IMG/VR virus record: IMGVR_UViG_3300034378_000186
Location: 16,793-80,792 of that record
Reading direction: 5' to 3' (one strand)
DNA: 64,000 nt
Source: a virus
Below the pieces are notes generated by a model that did no database searches, was not told where the DNA came from, and saw only the letters and a program-made list of their open reading frames with translations. This document shows, one piece after another, positions 15,208-55,509 of this stretch. Every line of letters begins with the position of its first letter. The stretch's first letter is position 1. A program made the translations under genes and the position numbers.

Positions 15208-16674
15208 ATGAAAAGAATATTGTTTTTGTTGATATTATATCTACCATTATTTTTATATGGTCAAGATTATAGCGATAATAAGGTTATTGATATTAATCCT
15301 GGAGGTGGAGGAGGTCCTGACAGCACGTGGGTAACCATAACTACTGACACATTAAAAGTTAATGAACACCTGGAAGTCAGTGGAACTGCCACAATAGCAG
15401 AAATGGAAGTGACCGGCGCATCGTCGGTCGACGCCAACTTCTCGATTACCGGGGAGAACTATATGAGCCTCGACTATTGGTTAGAGAGCGCATTGCCGAG
15501 TTCCTCCAGTGGACCGAAATCCTTTATCGCGTCCAAGACAGACGGGGGTGGCAACCCTTATCTGTGGCACGTACAAGACCTTGGCACGTATAAGATACTG
15601 GACGAGTACTACTTAGAGGTGGAAGGTGCCGGTCTGGTGAAGTACTTCACACCAACAGGCACGAACGACCTGGCGGAGTTCGAGCTGTACTGCACGTACC
15701 AGATGGCCAAGGGACAGCCTGCGTACATATACGACCCTAGCGACAACGGACTGGACATACAGTACCCGTCGGCGACTGGCAAAAGTTACAACAGACTGCC
15801 GTGGATCGGCGTGTCAACGGACGGGGACGACGCTCCACGAATTAGGATAGATAGCGGAACGCTGTTCAGCCAGATGGGAATAAAGAACTTCAGCATAGAC
15901 GTGTTCGGTGACATAACGATACACTCGTACGGCGCGGAGATGGACTTCGCCAACGTCTACATCAAGAAGAACGCCAAGATAACGATAAGTGGCTCGGGCA
16001 AGTTCAAGTTCTACCGGCTCAAGACCTATTCCTCGACCGGGATAAGCAGGATGAACATAAAAAACATGGCTAACATGTACATAACTTACTTCTTGACCGT
16101 CGGCCCCAGCGGCATAGACTTGCAGATAGAGGACGGCGGGGTGCTCGACATAGGCAAGGGCGACGACAAAGTGGAGATTCACGTGGGATACAACTTAGGA
16201 ACGCCACAGAACGACGCGAGGCTCAGCGTCGCGGATTACAACAACATAGACTCGGTGGTCGTCCACGGGGACAGGTGCATAGTGGAATTAACGAACTGCG
16301 ACGCACTGGACATCAGACCCACAGCGGACGCAACGACTGTGATAGGAAACGGCAACGTCGTGAACGACGGAGGAACTAACAGCGTAATCCTGGAGGACAT
16401 CGCTGATGGCAAGATGCCGGCCGACACGTCTTCGCTGGGCGAGACCATACCCCGCATGAACGAGCTGGTGTACAAGCAGAAGGGCAACGGTATAACCACC
16501 ACGCTCTGGGCGAGTCCCGAGGAGGGTGACAACCTTGTGATAATAAACAGGGGCGGTGGCAGCAACACGATTTCGGGAAACGGGAACAACATCGAGGGGT
16601 CGGCGACCACGACGATTAACGACGACGAGAGCTTCAGCCTCGTGTACATTAACGGCGAGTGGCTGATATATTAA
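15208..16674 (+). CDS. Signal-peptide fibre-like protein with foreign high-GC body
   Basis: MKRILFLLILYLPLFLYG-Q; GC jumps after the GGGGG linker; C-terminal domain 58/83 identical to the 10584 protein. Confidence 0.65.
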   Translation: MKRILFLLILYLPLFLYGQDYSDNKVIDINPGGGGGPDSTWVTITTDTLKVNEHLEVSGTATIAEMEVTGASSVDANFSITGENYMSLDYWLESALPSSSSGPKSFIASKTDGGGNPYLWHVQDLGTYKILDEYYLEVEGAGLVKYFTPTGTNDLAEFELYCTYQMAKGQPAYIYDPSDNGLDIQYPSATGKSYNRLPWIGVSTDGDDAPRIRIDSGTLFSQMGIKNFSIDVFGDITIHSYGAEMDFANVYIKKNAKITISGSGKFKFYRLKTYSSTGISRMNIKNMANMYITYFLTVGPSGIDLQIEDGGVLDIGKGDDKVEIHVGYNLGTPQNDARLSVADYNNIDSVVVHGDRCIVELTNCDALDIRPTADATTVIGNGNVVNDGGTNSVILEDIADGKMPADTSSLGETIPRMNELVYKQKGNGITTTLWASPEEGDNLVIINRGGGSNTISGNGNNIEGSATTTINDDESFSLVYINGEWLIY

Positions 16675-16722
16675 AAAACTTTATTAAAAATTAAATAATT
16701 ACTAATTTAAACATAACAGAAA

Positions 16723-17289
16723 ATGAAATCAATTAAATTATTTATTATCGCATTAATTAGTTTGGTAACTTTTACAGTCGAAGCCCAAATGAGCGATAGT
16801 GCAATGGCTGTTTATGATTCTGCAGTTTGTCAGGATGCAATTAGTGATATTGGTAATCCTACATGTGCTAAATATGTAGATTATTTATATTATAATTGGA
16901 AAGGAGATGTAAATGATTTTGATTCTCTTGAACAAATTAATTTTTGTACAGTAACAGGTACTTTAGTAACTGTTTATGGTGCTGATACTGTTGCATTAAT
17001 TATTACATGTCAAATAACTCAGGGTACTCCTGCAAGATTATTTAATATGAGTTTTAGTAAAAATAAAAGGAATGTTATGAATTTTGCAGAATTATTTACT
17101 TATTTTATTGATTATTCACAAACAGGTTTAGATAAGGATTCTTTAATAGGAGAAAATGTTTATGGGTATGAGGTAGAGAATGGTAGAAAAAGAACAGGTA
17201 CATTAGTATATATAAATACTGAGGAAAAATATGGAGTAATTGAAAGAGGGAATAGAACCTACAAATGCAATTTATTTACTATCCACTAA
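16723..17289 (+). CDS. Hypothetical protein with signal peptide
   Basis: MKSIKLFIIALISLVTFTVEA-Q. Confidence 0.6.
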   Translation: MKSIKLFIIALISLVTFTVEAQMSDSAMAVYDSAVCQDAISDIGNPTCAKYVDYLYYNWKGDVNDFDSLEQINFCTVTGTLVTVYGADTVALIITCQITQGTPARLFNMSFSKNKRNVMNFAELFTYFIDYSQTGLDKDSLIGENVYGYEVENGRKRTGTLVYINTEEKYGVIERGNRTYKCNLFTIH

Positions 17290-17495
17290 TGAGGTGGATA
17301 GTAATAATATTGGTTCTTTGTTTCTGTTCTTGTGTTAATCAATATCATGTTTTTCATGTGAATAGAAAATTCAGTGGTGAGGTTGAATATATTTTTATGA
17401 AAGGTAGGAAATCGATCACTGTAAAAACTGATACAATGCCTTATAAGAAAAATGAATTGATAACTTTAAGGCAAATCAAAAAGTTGGAAAAATGA
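17289..17495 (+). CDS. Putative small lipoprotein (start at 17289, TAATG-coupled)
   Basis: MRWIVIILVLCFCS-C lipobox-like N-terminus. Confidence 0.5.
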   Translation: MRWIVIILVLCFCSCVNQYHVFHVNRKFSGEVEYIFMKGRKSITVKTDTMPYKKNELITLRQIKKLEK

Positions 17496-17590
17496 AACCT
17501 CCTAAAAAAGGAAAAATAGTAACAGGGGTAACGTTATTTAATATTTTACTTATTGCTGCTGTAACGGTGATAGGAGGTTTATTTATATGA
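17492..17590 (+). CDS. Small single-TM protein whose last 8 codons (19609-19636) were displaced by TnpB element 1
   Basis: ATGA-coupled start; joining 17586 to 19609 gives MKPPKKGK...GGLFIERRVSDAV-stop (40 aa). Confidence 0.6.
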   Translation: MKPPKKGKIVTGVTLFNILLIAAVTVIGGLFI

Positions 17591-17695
17591 CGGAGCGTAA
17601 AACCAATTCATCGCTTTAGCGTGGATTGGATGTAAGCGACTTACTCTTCACTTACATTTTGTAATTTTGTAAAAGTTTAGACTATTTAATAATAT

Positions 17696-19603
17696 ATGCT
17701 TAAAGGATTAAAATATCGCATTTACCCAACCAACTCACAAAAAGAGTTAATAGCCAAACATATTGGTAGTAGTCGTTTTGTGTATAACCTTGCATTAGAA
17801 ACAAAAAATACAGCATATTTAGGTTCTAAACATAACTTTTCTCCTTTTGATTTAATTAAGCAACTATCTGAACTTAAAAAAGAATATCCTTGGCTTAAAG
17901 AGGTTAATAGCCAATCTTTACAGCAAGCTATCCAAAATATGGATATTGCTTTTAAGAAATTCTTTAAAGGGGCTGGTTTTCCTAAATTCAAGTCAAAGCA
18001 TAGAGGAAAACAATCTTTTTCTATTCCACAAAATGTAATAGTAGAAAATGAAAAGTTAATTATTCCTAAATTCAAGGAAGGAATCGAAATTGTTTTGCAC
18101 AGACCTATTGAAGGAACAATCAAAAGTGCAACTATTAGTATTACTTCAACAGGGAAATACTTTGTTTCAATATTAGTTGAAACCAGTAAAGAGAAACCAA
18201 GTAAAGCACCTATTAAAGAAAAAACAACTATTGGTATTAAGTTAGGCGTATTCCCAAATATGTTTTCTACAAATAATTTTTCCGTTAGCCCATTGGCTAA
18301 TAGACGATGCGGAACTTCCAGTTCCTCTACTGGCAGCAGTGCAACTCTCCCAAACAGCAATGATTTCTCCTGTTTCCTTGCTTCTTTGAATGACTTTCTT
18401 CTTGGAAGCCGCCCAAGCAGCTTGATGCAGTTTGGATATATGCTCGGCACTACGTTTTGCCCCCTTATTGGCTTTAGATATTTTTCTTCTTGTTTCAGCA
18501 GAGTGCGTTTTTCCAAAAAAGCCATTAAATTCTCCAACTCTGGTTTTAGCGCGGTTAGAAATAGCAGCACATTCGGATTGAGTTCTTTTTCTCCCCAAAG
18601 TGCTTCTATGGGGTACGGTGCAAATATTATAGCCGAATTTCTTTTCGTTACTCCTAAAGAAGGAAATCCAAAAGCATTCTCTATCTTGAAGGCTTGCGTA
18701 ATCCTCGACAACTTCGATGATTTGGAAATCAAAAGCATCCCATCCGTACTTAGCAATAGCCTTGTAAAATGGAAAGTTGCTTTGCAAGTTCCTTTTTCTT
18801 CTGTGTTCAGCAAATCTAAGTTTGATATTGACGGATTGCCCAATGTAGCATTTACCGTTGATTGTGTTTCTGAAGATGTAAACTCCAGATACAGATGGGA
18901 TGTCTTTGAACCTTGTTTGCATATTGCAAAGATACAAAAAGAAAACGATTTAAAACCTAATTGTTCAAAAAAAGACTTAGGAATAAAATCGTTTTTAGTT
19001 ACTTCTGATGGAGAAGAAATTGATAATCCCAAATACTTACGAAAAGCACAGAGTAGATTAAAATATGTACAACGTAAATATTCAAATAACAAAGGCAAGC
19101 GCACTAAGAAAAAACTTGCTAAGCTACACGAAAAAGTAGCTAACCAAAGAAAAGATTTTCTACATAAAACCTCAACTAAACTGATTCGTGAGAACCAAAC
19201 GATAGCCATTGAGGATTTAGCGGTTGCTAACATGGTCAAGAACCATAATCTTGCACAGGCAATTAGTGATGTTAGTTGGTCAACCTTTGTTTCAATGTTG
19301 GAATACAAAGCTGATTGGTATGGTAAAAATATCTTACAAATAGGACGTTTTGCACCATCATCAAAGACTTGTTCTTGCTGTGGGTATATCAATAAAGAAC
19401 TAACACTAAAAGACCGTGAATGGACTTGTCCTAAGTGTAATTCTGTACTTGACCGTGATGTGAATGCTGCTGTTAACATTAAATCATTTGCATTAAAAAA
19501 TATCTTATCTGGAACGGATAGGAAAACTCGGAACGAACTGCCTCGGTTACGAGGAGTGTTGACTTCCGAAGCCCAACCCATCGGCTCTGCCGTGGGTGGG
19601 TAG
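17696..19603 (+). CDS. tnpB: TnpB RNA-guided nuclease (390 aa native) with a 245-codon in-frame insertion splitting RuvC-I
   Basis: N-terminal KYRIYPT...RFVYN; TTIGI / DLGIK split; IAIEDL; CSCCG...CPKC zinc finger; DRDVNAA. Confidence 0.92.
   Translation: MLKGLKYRIYPTNSQKELIAKHIGSSRFVYNLALETKNTAYLGSKHNFSPFDLIKQLSELKKEYPWLKEVNSQSLQQAIQNMDIAFKKFFKGAGFPKFKSKHRGKQSFSIPQNVIVENEKLIIPKFKEGIEIVLHRPIEGTIKSATISITSTGKYFVSILVETSKEKPSKAPIKEKTTIGIKLGVFPNMFSTNNFSVSPLANRRCGTSSSSTGSSATLPNSNDFSCFLASLNDFLLGSRPSSLMQFGYMLGTTFCPLIGFRYFSSCFSRVRFSKKAIKFSNSGFSAVRNSSTFGLSSFSPQSASMGYGANIIAEFLFVTPKEGNPKAFSILKACVILDNFDDLEIKSIPSVLSNSLVKWKVALQVPFSSVFSKSKFDIDGLPNVAFTVDCVSEDVNSRYRWDVFEPCLHIAKIQKENDLKPNCSKKDLGIKSFLVTSDGEEIDNPKYLRKAQSRLKYVQRKYSNNKGKRTKKKLAKLHEKVANQRKDFLHKTSTKLIRENQTIAIEDLAVANMVKNHNLAQAISDVSWSTFVSMLEYKADWYGKNILQIGRFAPSSKTCSCCGYINKELTLKDREWTCPKCNSVLDRDVNAAVNIKSFALKNILSGTDRKTRNELPRLRGVLTSEAQPIGSAVGG
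18242..18922 (-). CDS. GIY-YIG homing endonuclease with NUMOD3-like and C-terminal HTH-like DNA-binding modules (ATG at 18922)
   Basis: GVYIFRNTINGKCYIGQS, LRFAEH, DRECFWI, GYN; FFGKTHSAETRRKIS; C-terminal VIQ...WESCTAAS...WEY. Confidence 0.92.
   Translation of the reverse strand: MQTRFKDIPSVSGVYIFRNTINGKCYIGQSVNIKLRFAEHRRKRNLQSNFPFYKAIAKYGWDAFDFQIIEVVEDYASLQDRECFWISFFRSNEKKFGYNICTVPHRSTLGRKRTQSECAAISNRAKTRVGEFNGFFGKTHSAETRRKISKANKGAKRSAEHISKLHQAAWAASKKKVIQRSKETGEIIAVWESCTAASRGTGSSASSISQWANGKIICRKHIWEYA
18927..18934 (-). promoter_or_regulatory. Bacteroidota -7 promoter element TATCTTTG for the GIY-YIG gene
   Basis: Matches TAnnTTTG, 4 nt upstream of ATG, inside the 735-bp insert. Confidence 0.7.
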
Positions 19604-19628
19604 TTCACTGAACGTAGGGTTTCAGATG
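19490..19628 (+). ncRNA. Predicted omegaRNA of element 1 (5' end approximate); guide TGAACGTAGGGTTTCAGATG (19609-19628)
   Basis: TnpB omegaRNAs overlap the tnpB 3' end and right end and take their guide from the flank; right-end hairpin and TCAC terminus seen. Confidence 0.65.
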
Positions 19629-19671
19629 CAGTTTAGGATTAAAAAAAATAAATCTAATTCTTAATTAAAAG

Positions 19672-20070
19672 ATGATTGATATGACTCCAGAAGACAGACG
19701 ATGGTTAGAAGAAATGGTAGGAAGAATTTCGGATAACATCGAAAACAATAAAGAAAATATTGATTTAAGAATCTTAGGGTTGTCTGGAGAGATGAAGAGT
19801 AATTTTAACTTGACCAATTTTCAACTTGAGGAGATAAAGAAACAGGTTATATTGACAAACAGTAGGGTTAATAAATTGGAAGAAAAGGAGAAAGGATCTT
19901 ATCCAAGATTGGTTGCTGTTGAAAAAGAAATGAAAGGGATATTAAAAGAAACTGAAGAAGTTAGATTTTTTAATCGTCATCCGAGATTTTTAAAATTAAT
20001 TCTTTGGTTGATAGGGTTAATATCTGCCGGATCTTTTGCTTTACAGATTATTCAGAAACTTATAAAATAA
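19672..20070 (+). CDS. Coiled-coil protein with C-terminal TM helix (lysis-associated candidate)
   Basis: C-terminal LKLILWLIGLISAGSFALQII; directly upstream of the amidase. Confidence 0.5.
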   Translation: MIDMTPEDRRWLEEMVGRISDNIENNKENIDLRILGLSGEMKSNFNLTNFQLEEIKKQVILTNSRVNKLEEKEKGSYPRLVAVEKEMKGILKETEEVRFFNRHPRFLKLILWLIGLISAGSFALQIIQKLIK

Positions 20071-20076
20071 GTAATT

Positions 20077-20772
20077 ATGGATCTAACTAAATACAAAAAT
20101 GTTCCAAGGGAATATCTAAAAGGAGATTCTAGGACTTGTCAGATCATAGATAATGGTCATGGAGGCATGAAAGATTATAAAAGATATGATTCTCCTTTAG
20201 CTTATTTAACTCCTGAAATATATGGTAAAAAGGCAAATCATTATACCCATATATTTTTCGAGGGGACATGGAATAGGATTGTAGCTCTGGAAATTGCAAA
20301 AGTCTTATATGATATGAAATTGAATTATAAGATTATTGTTCCAGAGGAAGAAGATGTTTATTTATCAGAAAGATGCAGGAGGGCAAATGAATTTGCAAGT
20401 CAACATCTGAATCTTAAAACATTCTTTCATTCTATTCATGGTAATGCTTTTGGTTTAGAATCTGTAAAAGGTATTGAAGTTTACACTTCTATTGGTACCA
20501 CAAAATCGGATGAAATTGCTACTATTTTCTATGAAAAATATAATGGTTATATTGGTTGGAATATGAGATCTGATTGGTCTGATGGTGATGCAGATAAGGA
20601 AGCAAAATTTACTGTACTTACTCAAACCAATATGCCTGCTATTTTAAGTGAACTTGGTTTTTATACTAATCCTGATGAATGTTTGGAAATGTTACAAACC
20701 AAAAATATTAAATTGATTGCAGAAACTATCGGTAAGGCACATAAGGAGCTTGAGGATAATAAAATATTGTGA
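20077..20772 (+). CDS. Endolysin, N-acetylmuramoyl-L-alanine amidase (Amidase_3 type)
   Basis: IIDNGHGG, E-WN, LSERCRRAN, SIHGNA, PAILSELGFYTN. Confidence 0.9.
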   Translation: MDLTKYKNVPREYLKGDSRTCQIIDNGHGGMKDYKRYDSPLAYLTPEIYGKKANHYTHIFFEGTWNRIVALEIAKVLYDMKLNYKIIVPEEEDVYLSERCRRANEFASQHLNLKTFFHSIHGNAFGLESVKGIEVYTSIGTTKSDEIATIFYEKYNGYIGWNMRSDWSDGDADKEAKFTVLTQTNMPAILSELGFYTNPDECLEMLQTKNIKLIAETIGKAHKELEDNKIL

Positions 20773-20822
20773 AATTTTTCTTATATTTATAAATTAAAAT
20801 CGGTTTTTAAAAAACTAAAATT

Positions 20823-21041
20823 ATGCAAGATTTTGAAAAAGAATTAAAACTGCGCAGAATTCAAGAAAGGGATCATATTGAAAAATCAACAGAAGAAAAT
20901 CTGTATGAAAATCAAGCAAAAGCCCGTAAAATTCAAGATCAAAAAATTCATGCTTTGAATGTAATTCAAAAGGCTGTGAATGAGGGAGAACTTGAAAAGG
21001 ATGTTTTTATGAAGGCAGTTGGGAAAGTTGTTAATAATTAA
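20823..21041 (+). CDS. Small protein with repeated putative protease motifs
   Basis: IEKS, IQKA and FMKA within 72 aa. Confidence 0.5.
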   Translation: MQDFEKELKLRRIQERDHIEKSTEENLYENQAKARKIQDQKIHALNVIQKAVNEGELEKDVFMKAVGKVVNN

Positions 21042-41259: not shown

Positions 41260-41305
41260 TATAAACTACCCATCGGCTAAAGACCGAATGGGTTTTAGAC
41301 AATAA

Positions 41306-42394
41306 CTAAGAATGCAAAGAGCAATACATAATCTGTCTTTCAGGCGTGTTTATAGCCGCCCCAAGCAAAGAGATAACCTTAGAAGCATTAAAATCTGCAT
41401 CAATGGTATCTACTTCACAATTTGTGTTGGTGCATTTAAACACCTTGTTGGTTCGTTTTCCAATATGTTTACAAGAGCTGCACGTCTGCGAAGTATAGGC
41501 AGGTGGTACAACGATGCATTTCACACCATTAAGCAAAGCTTTGTATTCAATATACTGTCTAAGCATAGAGAAATTCCATTTACCAAGTTTAGTCCGAAAC
41601 TTCTTGTTTCTTTTTTTACTTGTAAATCGGATTCCAGTAAGGTCTTCAATAGCGATTCCCTTGCCTTGCTCCTTAGCAGATTGAACAATAGATTTTGCGA
41701 TAGTGTGATTAACAATTTGGGCGTGCGTTTTCTCCCTTCCCGAAAGCCTTTTCAAAAGTCGTTTAGAACTTCTTGTGCATTTGGACTGGATAGAACTCCG
41801 AACCTTTTGACGTTTTTCCTTATACCTATTAAGGGAGTTGTTGGTGTGTTTCTCACCATCACTTGTTTCAACAATAGATGTGATGCCGAAATCCACTCCC
41901 GTAAATTCGGAAACATCTTTAATATCTACATCTGGAATATCAACACATTGAAACAAGAAAAATTTCCCTTTCCTGTAGATAAGGTCGGCCTCCCCTTTTA
42001 TGTATGGAAGATACTTTTTGTTGAAACATTTAAAAGGTATTTTTTGTCTGCCACCAATACACCATATAGAAACAATGTCTTTTTTGTAGGTAAGAATCCT
42101 ACTGTCATAAGTAATTGCTCCAAAAGGCTTGAAAACACGTTTTTTCTTCCTATCAAGTTTATAAGCATCGTTCACTTTTGCGATGGCACGAACAATTACT
42201 TGTGCAGAAAGATTAGAGTTTTCCTTGATTTGATGGTAAACAAGTTTATGTATTTTGAACTGATTAAAAACTTTGTTTTCCCAAGCTATATTAGAAATAG
42301 CGTTGCAACTTTTATTCACCGATTTAATGGTGTTAAGGAGCATCTGTTTATGTTCTTCCGTGGGTTCAAGTTTTATTTTAAGAGTCAAAACCAT
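41306..42394 (-). CDS. tnpB: TnpB RNA-guided nuclease, catalytic triad intact (ATG at 42394)
   Basis: LTLKIKLEP N-terminus; GVDFG, IAIEDL, AYTSQTCSSC, FKC...C, DADFNAS. Confidence 0.92.
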   Translation of the reverse strand: MVLTLKIKLEPTEEHKQMLLNTIKSVNKSCNAISNIAWENKVFNQFKIHKLVYHQIKENSNLSAQVIVRAIAKVNDAYKLDRKKKRVFKPFGAITYDSRILTYKKDIVSIWCIGGRQKIPFKCFNKKYLPYIKGEADLIYRKGKFFLFQCVDIPDVDIKDVSEFTGVDFGITSIVETSDGEKHTNNSLNRYKEKRQKVRSSIQSKCTRSSKRLLKRLSGREKTHAQIVNHTIAKSIVQSAKEQGKGIAIEDLTGIRFTSKKRNKKFRTKLGKWNFSMLRQYIEYKALLNGVKCIVVPPAYTSQTCSSCKHIGKRTNKVFKCTNTNCEVDTIDADFNASKVISLLGAAINTPERQIMYCSLHS

Positions 42395-42398
42395 AAGG

Positions 42399-42406
42399 CA
42401 AATATA
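42399..42406 (-). promoter_or_regulatory. Bacteroidota -7 element TATATTTG for tnpB2
   Basis: Matches TAnnTTTG, 4 nt before ATG. Confidence 0.7.
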
Positions 42407-42504
42407 CAAAATATTTCTATATTTGAAAATTATTATTTAACCAAAGGGAGAGCCACTTTCCTCCCATCGACACTTTGTGACCAATGGGTTTCCGTGGCAG
42501 TTTT

Positions 42505-43122
42505 ATGAAATTTGAGGCTAATTTTTTAACATTTGACCTGGAAACAGGGGGTTTAAAATCTGAAGAAAACCCTGTTTTGGAAGTTGCATTTTTTGCAATG
42601 GATAAAGATCTTAATGAGATCGATAGTTATAATAGTTTGATAAAACCTTATGGTAAACTAAAAATCACAGATGGTGCTTTAAAGGCCAATGGATTAAATT
42701 TAGAAACATTGGAAGAGAAAGGGAAAGAATGTAAAGAAGTAGCAGAAGATTTAGTTCAATTTTTTATAAAACATAAAAAAAGGAAAACATTACCTATTTT
42801 ATGTGGGCATAACATTGAACATTTTGATATTCCTTTTTTGGACCAATTTATGAATTTTTGTGGTAAAGATATTTCAAAGTTGGTTAATAATGATTTTATA
42901 ATTGACACATTATGGTGGAGTAGAATAAGATGGGTTGAATCCATTAATTATAAATTGGTAACCTGTTGTGATAATGCAGGGATAGAATTAATAAATGCTC
43001 ATAGGGCTGTTGCTGATACTAAAGCAAATCAAGAATTAGTTAGGTATTTTCTGAATAGTTTAAGATCTGGTCAATCATCAACAGTAATAGAAAAAAGATT
43101 TAGGGAAGAATTTGAATTTTAA
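42505..43122 (+). CDS. DEDDh 3'-5' exonuclease (DnaQ/epsilon-like)
   Basis: FDLETGG, CGHNIEHFDIPFL, IDTL, AHRAVADT. Confidence 0.9.
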   Translation: MKFEANFLTFDLETGGLKSEENPVLEVAFFAMDKDLNEIDSYNSLIKPYGKLKITDGALKANGLNLETLEEKGKECKEVAEDLVQFFIKHKKRKTLPILCGHNIEHFDIPFLDQFMNFCGKDISKLVNNDFIIDTLWWSRIRWVESINYKLVTCCDNAGIELINAHRAVADTKANQELVRYFLNSLRSGQSSTVIEKRFREEFEF

Positions 43123-54233: not shown

Positions 54234-55271
54234 ATGAAAAATATTTTGGGATTACTATCAACAGATTGGCACCTTAAGGATGAAAATACAGAACTAATTA
54301 AAGATCTGATTATTCAAAAATGTAAAAAAGCCAAAGAATTAAAAATTAAAAATCTTTTCTGTTTGGGGGATGTTTTAAATAGTAGGATTGCCCAAAGACA
54401 AAAGGTGTTATTGGCTTTTAAAGAAATTTTGGATATAATAAATGATTATGGATTGGAATTATATGTAATCCCAGGTAATCATGATAAAACAAATTATTCA
54501 TCCTATAAATCATTCTTAAATCCTTACGAAGGTCATCCAGCCTTAAAATTAATGAGTGAGGGTGATAAATTGGATATTATAGAAGGGATAAGAATTCATT
54601 TTATGCCATACCTGGAGGAAAATATGTGGCTGGAAGAATTTAAACCTGATCTATTGTCAAATATAAAGAATGTTTTACTGACACACATGGCATTTGAGGG
54701 TAGTGTTAATAATGATGGAAGTCTTGTTAGTACTCCCTTAAAGCCAAAATTATTTAAGAAATTTGATTTGGTGTTATCAGGTCATTATCATGATGAACAA
54801 ACTTTGGCTCCAAATATGTATCATATTCCTTCAATTTGCCAGGGTAATTTTGGAGAAGATGAAGTAAAAGGATTCACAATATTGTATGATGATCTGACTT
54901 TTGAAATTGTAAAATCTGATTTCCCTATTTATAAAAAAATATCTATTGATATTAACAAAATATCATCAAATGAGATTGTAAAAATGGCTGAAAAAGAAAC
55001 CAAAAATCTAAAAGATAATATTAGGTTTGAGTTTTCAGGGGATGAGGCAAAATTGAAGAATATAGATAAAAATTTCCTGAATATGATGGGGGTGGATGTT
55101 AAGATCAAAATTGCTTCAGTTGAAATAAAGGAATCGATAAAAAAAGTTAATCTGGAAAAAATCAATAAATCCCAATTATTGGATGAATTTAAAGATTTTT
55201 GTGAACAGGAAAAATTGGATTATGAAGAAGGTGTTGAATTGTTAAATGTGAACTACCCACCCACGCCATAG
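54234..55271 (+). CDS. SbcD/Mre11-like nuclease; native last 14 aa replaced by a MITE-derived tail
   Basis: TDWH, LGDVL, GNHD, SGHYH; ATG at 54234. Confidence 0.88.
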   Translation: MKNILGLLSTDWHLKDENTELIKDLIIQKCKKAKELKIKNLFCLGDVLNSRIAQRQKVLLAFKEILDIINDYGLELYVIPGNHDKTNYSSYKSFLNPYEGHPALKLMSEGDKLDIIEGIRIHFMPYLEENMWLEEFKPDLLSNIKNVLLTHMAFEGSVNNDGSLVSTPLKPKLFKKFDLVLSGHYHDEQTLAPNMYHIPSICQGNFGEDEVKGFTILYDDLTFEIVKSDFPIYKKISIDINKISSNEIVKMAEKETKNLKDNIRFEFSGDEAKLKNIDKNFLNMMGVDVKIKIASVEIKESIKKVNLEKINKSQLLDEFKDFCEQEKLDYEEGVELLNVNYPPTP

Positions 55272-55365
55272 GCGATGGGTTGGGCTTCAAGGTTCATAGA
55301 CTTAACCAACGTTAACGCCTCCACTTGTTTTTATTTATACTCCGATTGCGTCCCAAAACCAGAGT
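55228..55365 (-). ncRNA. Predicted stand-alone omegaRNA; guide ATTTAACAATTCAACACCTT
   Basis: TATATTTG -7 element at 55370-55377 (minus) directly upstream of about 115 nt ending in the right-end hairpin. Confidence 0.55.
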
Positions 55366-55461
55366 TATACAAATATACAACAATTATTTCAAAATATCAA
55401 GCGGAAAAAGAGGTCGCTTACATCCAAACCACTAAAGATGGTTTGGTTTTACGCTTCATTT
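55248..55461 (-). mobile_element. 214-bp non-coding family-1 IS200/IS605 MITE: left end + promoter + omegaRNA-like scaffold + right end
   Basis: Minus strand: TTTAT|AAATGAAGCGTAAAACC...TTGGATGTAAGCGAC (like element 1 left end) and GAAGCCCAACCCATCGCCTATGGCGTGGGTGGGTAGTTCAC (like right end); removal restores the sbcD frame to TAG at 55504-55506. Confidence 0.9.
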
Positions 55462-55509
55462 ATAAAAGTAAAGATAAAAAGGATTGGAGATAACTTAAAA
55501 AATTAGATT

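Follow-up and report, generated by a model that had tools for sequence, protein, structure and literature searches.

Stop-free reverse frames in two tnpB elements and a nested homing-endonuclease cassette of an uncultivated phage

Mycobacterial interspersed repetitive units (MIRUs) are mobile DNA with start codons as insertion sites, and the stop of an open reading frame (ORF) that crosses them in the direction of the host genes overlaps the host ATG by 4 nt, a coupling thought to keep the downstream gene expressed (review PMC12548453). In IStrons, which are IS607/IS605-type transposons fused to a group I intron, the cost is relieved by splicing (bioRxiv 10.1101/2023.11.20.567912). The DNA considered here, a window of 64,000 nt (positions 16,793 to 80,792) from the 80.8-kb uncultivated virus contig IMGVR_UViG_3300034378_000186 of IMG/VR, carries two tnpB-only elements of the IS200/IS605 type, one of them interrupted by a homing-endonuclease cassette, and the genes of these elements are overlaid by stop-free frames on the opposite strand. 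As in other IS200/IS605 tnpB-only (IS1341-type) elements, there is a TnpB domain set, conserved ends with hairpins, a short left-end motif and no transposase of their own. Like IStrons, they are TnpB-carrying transposons that would lessen the cost to interrupted host transcripts, but IStrons act in the sense orientation by RNA splicing, whereas here no intron is detectable and the proposed relief is translational and antisense. The stop of a host-direction ORF overlapping a downstream start is shared with MIRUs; these, however, are short, protein-less repeats, while the conduit described here extends over 360-630 codons on the reverse strand of a working protein gene and is paid for by the codon choice of that gene, its start is uncoupled from an upstream stop, and a nested homing-endonuclease cassette obeys the same rule. 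The coupling principle is therefore already published for MIRUs, and what is new is the nested frame-preserving cassette with its orientation control, the occurrence in one phage of two unrelated tnpB lineages that keep reverse frames in different registers, and ratios of nonsynonymous to synonymous substitution rates (dN/dS) showing that openness alone is selected. In the literature on tnpB elements and homing-endonuclease cassettes no paper was found on a conserved stop-free reverse frame, nor, in that on IS200/IS605 tnpB-only elements, on a target motif complementary to a start codon.

The features on which the argument depends are the following.

41262-42504, minus strand (antisense to the phage genes): family-2 tnpB-only element, recognized by conserved ends and diverging flanks in related loci
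41306-42409, minus strand: tnpB2, from its Pfam TNB domain, alignment A2 and codon counts
41312-42508, plus strand: exact-complement frame across tnpB2, 398 codons, from the ORF list
42505-43122, plus strand: RNase_T-type phage exonuclease gene, from Pfam and the sequence
17587-19608, plus strand (same way as the phage genes): family-1 tnpB-only IS200/IS605-type element, its flanks diverging directly outside the ends in 14 clade members
17696-19603, plus strand: tnpB1 frame, 635 codons, from Pfam domains and junctions compared with uninterrupted homologues
17722-19608, minus strand: stop-free frame antisense to tnpB1, 628 codons, from the ORF list and shuffles
18239-18973, minus strand: homing-endonuclease cassette, 735 nt (245 codons), from homologue comparison
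18242-18937, minus strand: GIY-YIG and NUMOD3 endonuclease, 231 amino acids, from Pfam, PHROG and codon counts

On the plus strand the tnpB2 element shows its right end first (TAAACTAC...), and its left end abuts an ATGAA at 42505 that contains the start codon of the exonuclease, so that the TGA stop of the 398-codon reverse frame (42506-42508) overlaps the exonuclease ATG. The gene itself appears intact, probably starting at the ATG at 42394 and keeping, in alignment A2, the RuvC residues D168, E250 and D332/D334 together with four zinc-finger cysteines; Pfam OrfB_IS605 and Cas12f1-like_TNB match both tnpB1 and tnpB2. A reading made earlier from the letters and the ORF list (the sequence-only reading) had reported a full-length antisense ORF in a different register over tnpB2, which is correct apart from the strands, the TNB domain placing the true TnpB on the minus strand and leaving the plus-strand ORF as the antisense one. 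A search of viral contigs with the exonuclease protein for an empty site of this element returned none.

Openness was judged against synonymous shuffles (500 for tnpB1) and against resampling with host codon usage, with Poisson P values. The reverse frame of tnpB2 has no stop where 21 are expected (P ~7e-10), and the gene is devoid of TTA, CTA and TCA codons, though TTA accounts for 48% of the Leu codons in the other phage genes. The antisense frame of tnpB1 has one stop against 12.3 expected, and none of the 500 synonymous shuffles had as few; the complement frame of the endonuclease, a gene which likewise lacks TTA, CTA and TCA, has none against 9.9 expected from host codon usage (Poisson 5e-5). 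Openness is beyond chance for all three of these frames, and the synonymous-codon shuffling that had been proposed as a check does not reproduce the long antisense frame of tnpB1, resampling with host usage giving the same verdict for tnpB2 and the endonuclease.

The same signature is conserved in relatives. In the tnpB2 family all 61 non-duplicate copies from viral contigs (56-79% identity) are open in the exact-complement frame across 96% or more of the gene, with averages of 18 and 33 stops in the two remaining antisense frames, and in the family alignment the forbidden codons are absent from columns 16-389, occurring only in the last tnpB codons or, in two copies, among the first 15. Copies in metagenome-assembled genomes keep the reverse frame down to 40% identity. 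Among distant TnpB relatives (at most 33% identity), this frame contains 25 and 10 stops in two copies of low guanine-plus-cytosine (GC) content, from Lactobacillus phage MLC-A and a faecal phage, and 4 in that of Rhodothermus phage RM378 (60% GC). All 14 copies of the tnpB1 clade are depleted in stops relative to synonymous shuffles (each P ≤0.01), whereas eight low-GC outgroups are not. Stops in close homologues had been named by the sequence-only reading as what would speak against selection; instead, the 61 tnpB2-family and 14 tnpB1-clade relatives favour it, and the proposal that these elements are selected for open antisense frames is upheld by both statistics and conservation. The assignment of these loci to IS200/IS605 elements follows from conserved ends with flanks diverging directly outside them in dozens of loci with different neighbours. 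In one tnpB2-family copy (L007/L008, equal to L087; reverse ORF 659-2371, reverse orientation) the frame continues for about 600 nt into neighbouring DNA as a would-be fusion ORF.

The open frame also has a direction. Upstream neighbour genes run with the reverse frame, and so opposite to tnpB, in 37 loci of the tnpB2 family and against it in 3, and the same tendency is seen in the tnpB1 clade (about 13 vs 6), where orientation and intactness of the reverse frame show no visible correlation among the 14 copies. Two arrangements serve as orientation controls. In locus L074 (105-2085) a tnpB2-family gene is interrupted at GVDF|G by a GIY-YIG gene that is related to that of the window (35% identity, with equal length and the same C-terminus) but is oriented like the host genes. 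The two frames that are stop-free in the endonuclease of the window contain 16 and 15 stops in this relative, which also breaks the tnpB sense frame, being instead fused in frame behind the reverse ORF (464 amino acids) and followed by an overlapping ORF of 199 amino acids, so that the host-direction strand is fully covered. Upstream of the window, at the start of the contig, tnpB3 (L069, 1-2850) is split by a sense PD-(D/E)XK-like gene (816-1865) and followed by an HNH gene (2266-2850). The tnpB reading frame is disrupted by these sense-oriented inserts, in which every antisense frame holds 7-24 stops. Openness is thus maintained, in every case, in the frame that points the same way as the genes around it.

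In the tnpB2 family the reverse ORF begins just inside the right end and spans the whole 1.2 kb, with a start codon at most 5 codons from the frame opening in 46 of 62 loci. In 38 of 59 loci its stop overlaps or directly adjoins an ATG at the outer margin of the left end, in 31 of them as an ATGA overlap, usually within ATGAA, and in the remaining 7 as a one-base overlap or abutment, and this ATG opens an ORF of at least 48 codons in most of the 38. Read on the reverse strand, the left end is followed by ATGAA in family 2 and by ATAAA in family 1, which suggests TTCAT, the reverse complement of ATGAA, as the target motif of the tnpB2 family. In two copies of the tnpB1 clade the reverse frame ends in the TAA of ATAAA (the complement of TTTAT), most copies stopping earlier. 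Hairpins are visible at the right ends of both elements of the window, and those of the two otherwise unrelated families (41262-41295 and 19568-19600) share the core CCCATCGGC.

Taken together, these data favour, with a probability of roughly 0.6, the reading that the open frames let ribosomes pass, in the direction of phage transcription, across elements that lie backwards. The extra frames would not be genes; rather, selfish DNA would have been selected to keep one frame of the phage-transcribed strand free of stops. Ribosomes translating phage transcripts would start on the reverse ORF and cross the element, and long untranslated RNA would be avoided, and with it Rho-type termination and RNA decay. 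An element of the tnpB2 family would land directly before start codons and cut the gene off from its own leader, while terminating ribosomes would be delivered to the junction ATG, where termination-reinitiation could keep the downstream gene expressed; the position of this ATG points to such coupling and not only to an anti-polarity effect. The nested cassette would follow the same rule one level down: it lies backwards in tnpB1, its length in nucleotides is divisible by 3, and it avoids the three codons whose complements would be stops in the tnpB1 frame, so that translation entering tnpB1 would continue through it to the normal stop. Since 69 nt separate the end of the tnpB1 frame from the next gene, the cassette would gain only the avoidance of polarity and decay and not reinitiation. 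ORFs of at least 40 codons cover 95.3% of the plus strand of the window, with a single gap above 225 nt, and without their open reverse frames tnpB2 and the GIY-YIG gene, both of which lie antisense, would be its longest untranslated stretches. The initial suggestion that the elements stay translatable in either orientation holds for the frame that runs along the neighbouring phage genes and is weak for the other direction, the 628-codon frame having no role here and the passage through the endonuclease being unreplicated.

Several observations weigh against ribosome passage as the purpose of these frames. A few co-oriented copies also keep the reverse frame, and in 21 of the 59 tnpB2-family copies it ends before the junction. 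For the reverse ORF, which opens some 50 nt into the element and beyond a stable hairpin, no ribosome-binding signal is obvious, and the TTCAT motif is derived from conserved junctions only. Copies of the tnpB1 clade are leaky, often with 1-4 stops in the reverse frame, and in the window tnpB1 runs with the phage genes, which leaves the 628-codon frame without a role in its present orientation. The passage of that frame through the endonuclease rests on one instance. A further candidate came from a miniature element:

55249-55466, minus strand: family-1 protein-less miniature element (MITE), its ends matching family-1 ends, between sbcD and recA

The plus-strand ORF 55275-55493 that crosses this MITE does begin 3 nt after the sbcD stop, as had been pointed out, but its length is equalled in 6% of shuffles and is non-significant by itself, and the ORF was rejected as independent evidence.

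An alternative, which we consider unlikely, is that translation of the reverse strand serves the element itself, either by protecting an antisense read-through RNA that restrains tnpB or, in the interrupted tnpB1, by maintaining translation of the tnpB mRNA so that transcription can proceed into the guide-RNA region at its 3' end. It would leave the same signature of openness without selection on a peptide, it would account for the co-oriented copies that keep the frame, and it agrees with a tnpB1 frame that extends to within 5 nt of the right end, the expected position of the guide RNA. It explains neither the 37:3 orientation bias nor the coincidence of the stop with an ATG at the element end, seen in 38 of 59 loci.

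Whether the peptide or only the openness of the frame is maintained can be read from its evolution. Over 108 pairs of the tnpB2 family the sense frame has a dN/dS of 0.12 with freely changing synonymous sites, and the antisense frame one of 1.29, close to the 1.7-1.8 obtained in simulations that select on the sense frame alone; when antisense stops are not forbidden, about 7 of them have accumulated in the simulation at dS 0.39. AlphaFold, run on the reverse-frame peptide with a 23-sequence alignment, gave a predicted local distance difference test score (pLDDT) of 30 with no residue above 50, and searches with the reverse-frame peptides found no Pfam or PHROG match, including for the 628-codon minus frame. 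On this evidence selection acts on openness and not on the peptide, which agrees with the earlier remark that the antisense peptides need not have a function. It is accordingly improbable that the reverse frames are real overlapping genes of the transposons, encoding for example an accessory or regulatory factor. They are full-length, conserved and start with ATG or GTG, and 7 database entries show that gene callers now and then annotate them as proteins; yet an antisense overlapping gene should show purifying selection on its peptide and a predicted fold or family, none of which is seen, the stop usually lies in the ATGAA at the outer edge, which reads as target-site DNA and not element DNA, and two unrelated tnpB lineages use different registers.

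In the tnpB1 element the left end is directly preceded by TTTAT (17582-17586) and the right end closes with ..TTCAC at 19608. The Pfam domains of tnpB1 are HTH_OrfB (1-41), OrfB_IS605 (427-516) and TNB (528-595), and the frame is 245 codons longer than usual, an excess that is accounted for, by comparison with uninterrupted homologues, by the 735-nt insert at 18239-18973. This cassette lies in antisense orientation within the RuvC-I motif, between its I and D codons, and the motif is divided between ..TTIGI and DLGIK with the catalytic Asp kept at the downstream junction, and the tnpB1 frame runs through it unbroken. The endonuclease, probably starting at the ATG at 18922, matches Pfam GIY-YIG (2e-10) and NUMOD3 (5e-9) and a PHROG homing endonuclease (1.5e-37). 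The 628-codon minus frame opens with a GTG that consists of the final three bases of the element, has its third codon positions facing those of tnpB1 and crosses the endonuclease in its +1 frame; it is probably the reverse frame proper to the tnpB1 clade and would be useful only when the element is reversed, as in most clade members. Over 18242-18937 three frames are therefore stop-free (tnpB1 on the plus strand, the endonuclease and the 628-codon frame on the minus strand), the other three having 12-25 stops; the ORF list confirms that three frames are open at once over about 680 nt, as first noticed, and also that antisense or overlapping ORFs elsewhere than in the elements are no longer than 140 amino acids. 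The third of these frames has no stop within the endonuclease against 2.9-6.7 expected (P ~0.05-0.001), which is suggestive of a passage beyond chance; among database proteins of 345-1099 amino acids none matched it over the endonuclease.

Three further database proteins of 634-636 amino acids have the same interrupted build, the frame being open through inserts 58-60% identical to that of the window. Between two of them (P0008 and P0009, compared at the protein level only) the insert is 96% identical and the tnpB flanks 77-79%, which indicates that the cassette moves between tnpB1 alleles by homing. In the three proteins (P0008-P0010; alignment A3, columns ~558-564) HANCG or HNTCG replaces the CSCCG of the window, so that one zinc-finger cysteine pair is lost, which fits decay of interrupted copies. 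The left edge of the cassette, AAGTTAGGCGTA (18239-18250), is a degenerate copy of the target GACTTAGGAATA just right of the insert (18974-18985), and the TAA stop of the endonuclease is the complement of a TTA Leu codon within this degenerate copy. Among viral and metagenome contigs the best endonuclease relatives reach at most 43% identity, and distant relatives are rich in stops in the corresponding frames. The tnpB2-family locus L074 described above, and a protein of the same build (P0006), show a single endonuclease lineage targeting the RuvC-I coding site in two tnpB families that are not related to each other. The cassette resembles the Seg-type free-standing GIY-YIG homing endonucleases of phages in its GIY-YIG and NUMOD3 build, its insertion in the most conserved catalytic-site DNA and its homing between alleles; here, however, the target is the selfish gene tnpB, and the cassette lies antisense inside the coding region, in frame and stop-free in the frame of its target.

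The fused frame could also be open because the insert serves as an additional domain of a functional 635-amino-acid protein, or because it is spliced out as an intron or intein. Four diverged copies that keep the fused frame and the Asp retained at the downstream junction speak for this, but we regard it as very improbable: the insert splits the first RuvC strand directly before that Asp, its translation is Ser/Phe-rich without a domain match, the whole 635-amino-acid translation showing TnpB domains only, and an Rfam scan of 16500-21000 at E up to 1 found no group I intron and no other family. The identities of 96% in the insert and 77-79% in the flanks likewise fit recent homing into formerly intact genes, and not an old functional fusion.

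An origin of the open frames as side effects of composition, codon bias or chance can be practically dismissed, since, even with a GC skew of about 0 over the elements and with a register of facing third positions that generally holds fewer stops (9-12 expected vs 36-64 in other frames), it is rejected by shuffles and host-usage resampling, the effect is limited to one frame and to particular lineages while being absent from outgroups, tnpB3, sense inserts and the related endonuclease, and openness outlasts a synonymous divergence of 0.3-0.7. Chance may now be confined to the MITE ORF and the third frame inside the endonuclease.

If ribosome passage across backwards-lying elements is indeed what these frames provide, TnpB transposons would have a third way to limit harm, beside excision and IStron splicing, and the presence of 1.2-kb elements lying backwards inside essential phage operons would be explained. 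It would also represent strong selection on the synonymous codons of one gene for translation of the other strand, with no protein at stake, and a clean natural example on which polarity and termination-reinitiation could be studied where the hosts are probably devoid of classical ribosome-binding sites. In a broader sense, it seems to us an evenly balanced question whether such translational transparency is a general, convergent adaptation of selfish DNA in tightly packed one-directional genomes, in which transposons and cassettes would act as ribosome conduits irrespective of the peptide, the orientation of each layer would set the open frame, and a target complementary to ATGAA would let one family insert cheaply at start codons. 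On the practical side, gene callers can report the reverse frame in place of tnpB, or 635-amino-acid 'TnpB' fusions, and TnpB genes recoded for genome editing would lose the stop-free reverse frame. The rule is directly testable by synonymous mutations that create stops.

The window has a GC content of about 30%, and all ordinary genes lie on its plus strand. The nearest terminases among cultured phages are those of Bacteroides phages (38% identity), the host is presumed to belong to the Bacteroidota, and a search for near-identical phage records found none. The 12-mer TTGTATNTTTGC lies a few bases before the ATG of both the endonuclease (18926-18937, minus strand) and tnpB2 (42398-42409, minus strand), occurs with one mismatch inside the MITE (55369-55380, minus strand) and is kept before tnpB in related loci. 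It resembles the Bacteroidota -7 promoter box TAnnTTTG, and would then presumably lead to transcripts with almost no leader; the generic Bacteroidota-type box TANNTTTG shows no enrichment in the window (100 occurrences vs 99 expected). At the left end of the tnpB1 element, a membrane-like phage ORF of 32 codons (17492-17590) takes its last codon and TGA stop from the TTTAT/ATGA junction. Further upstream, a gene at 15208-16674 encodes 488 amino acids with a weak match to a phage-depolymerase C-terminus, and its GC content of 45%, against 30% for the genome, suggests a recent acquisition.

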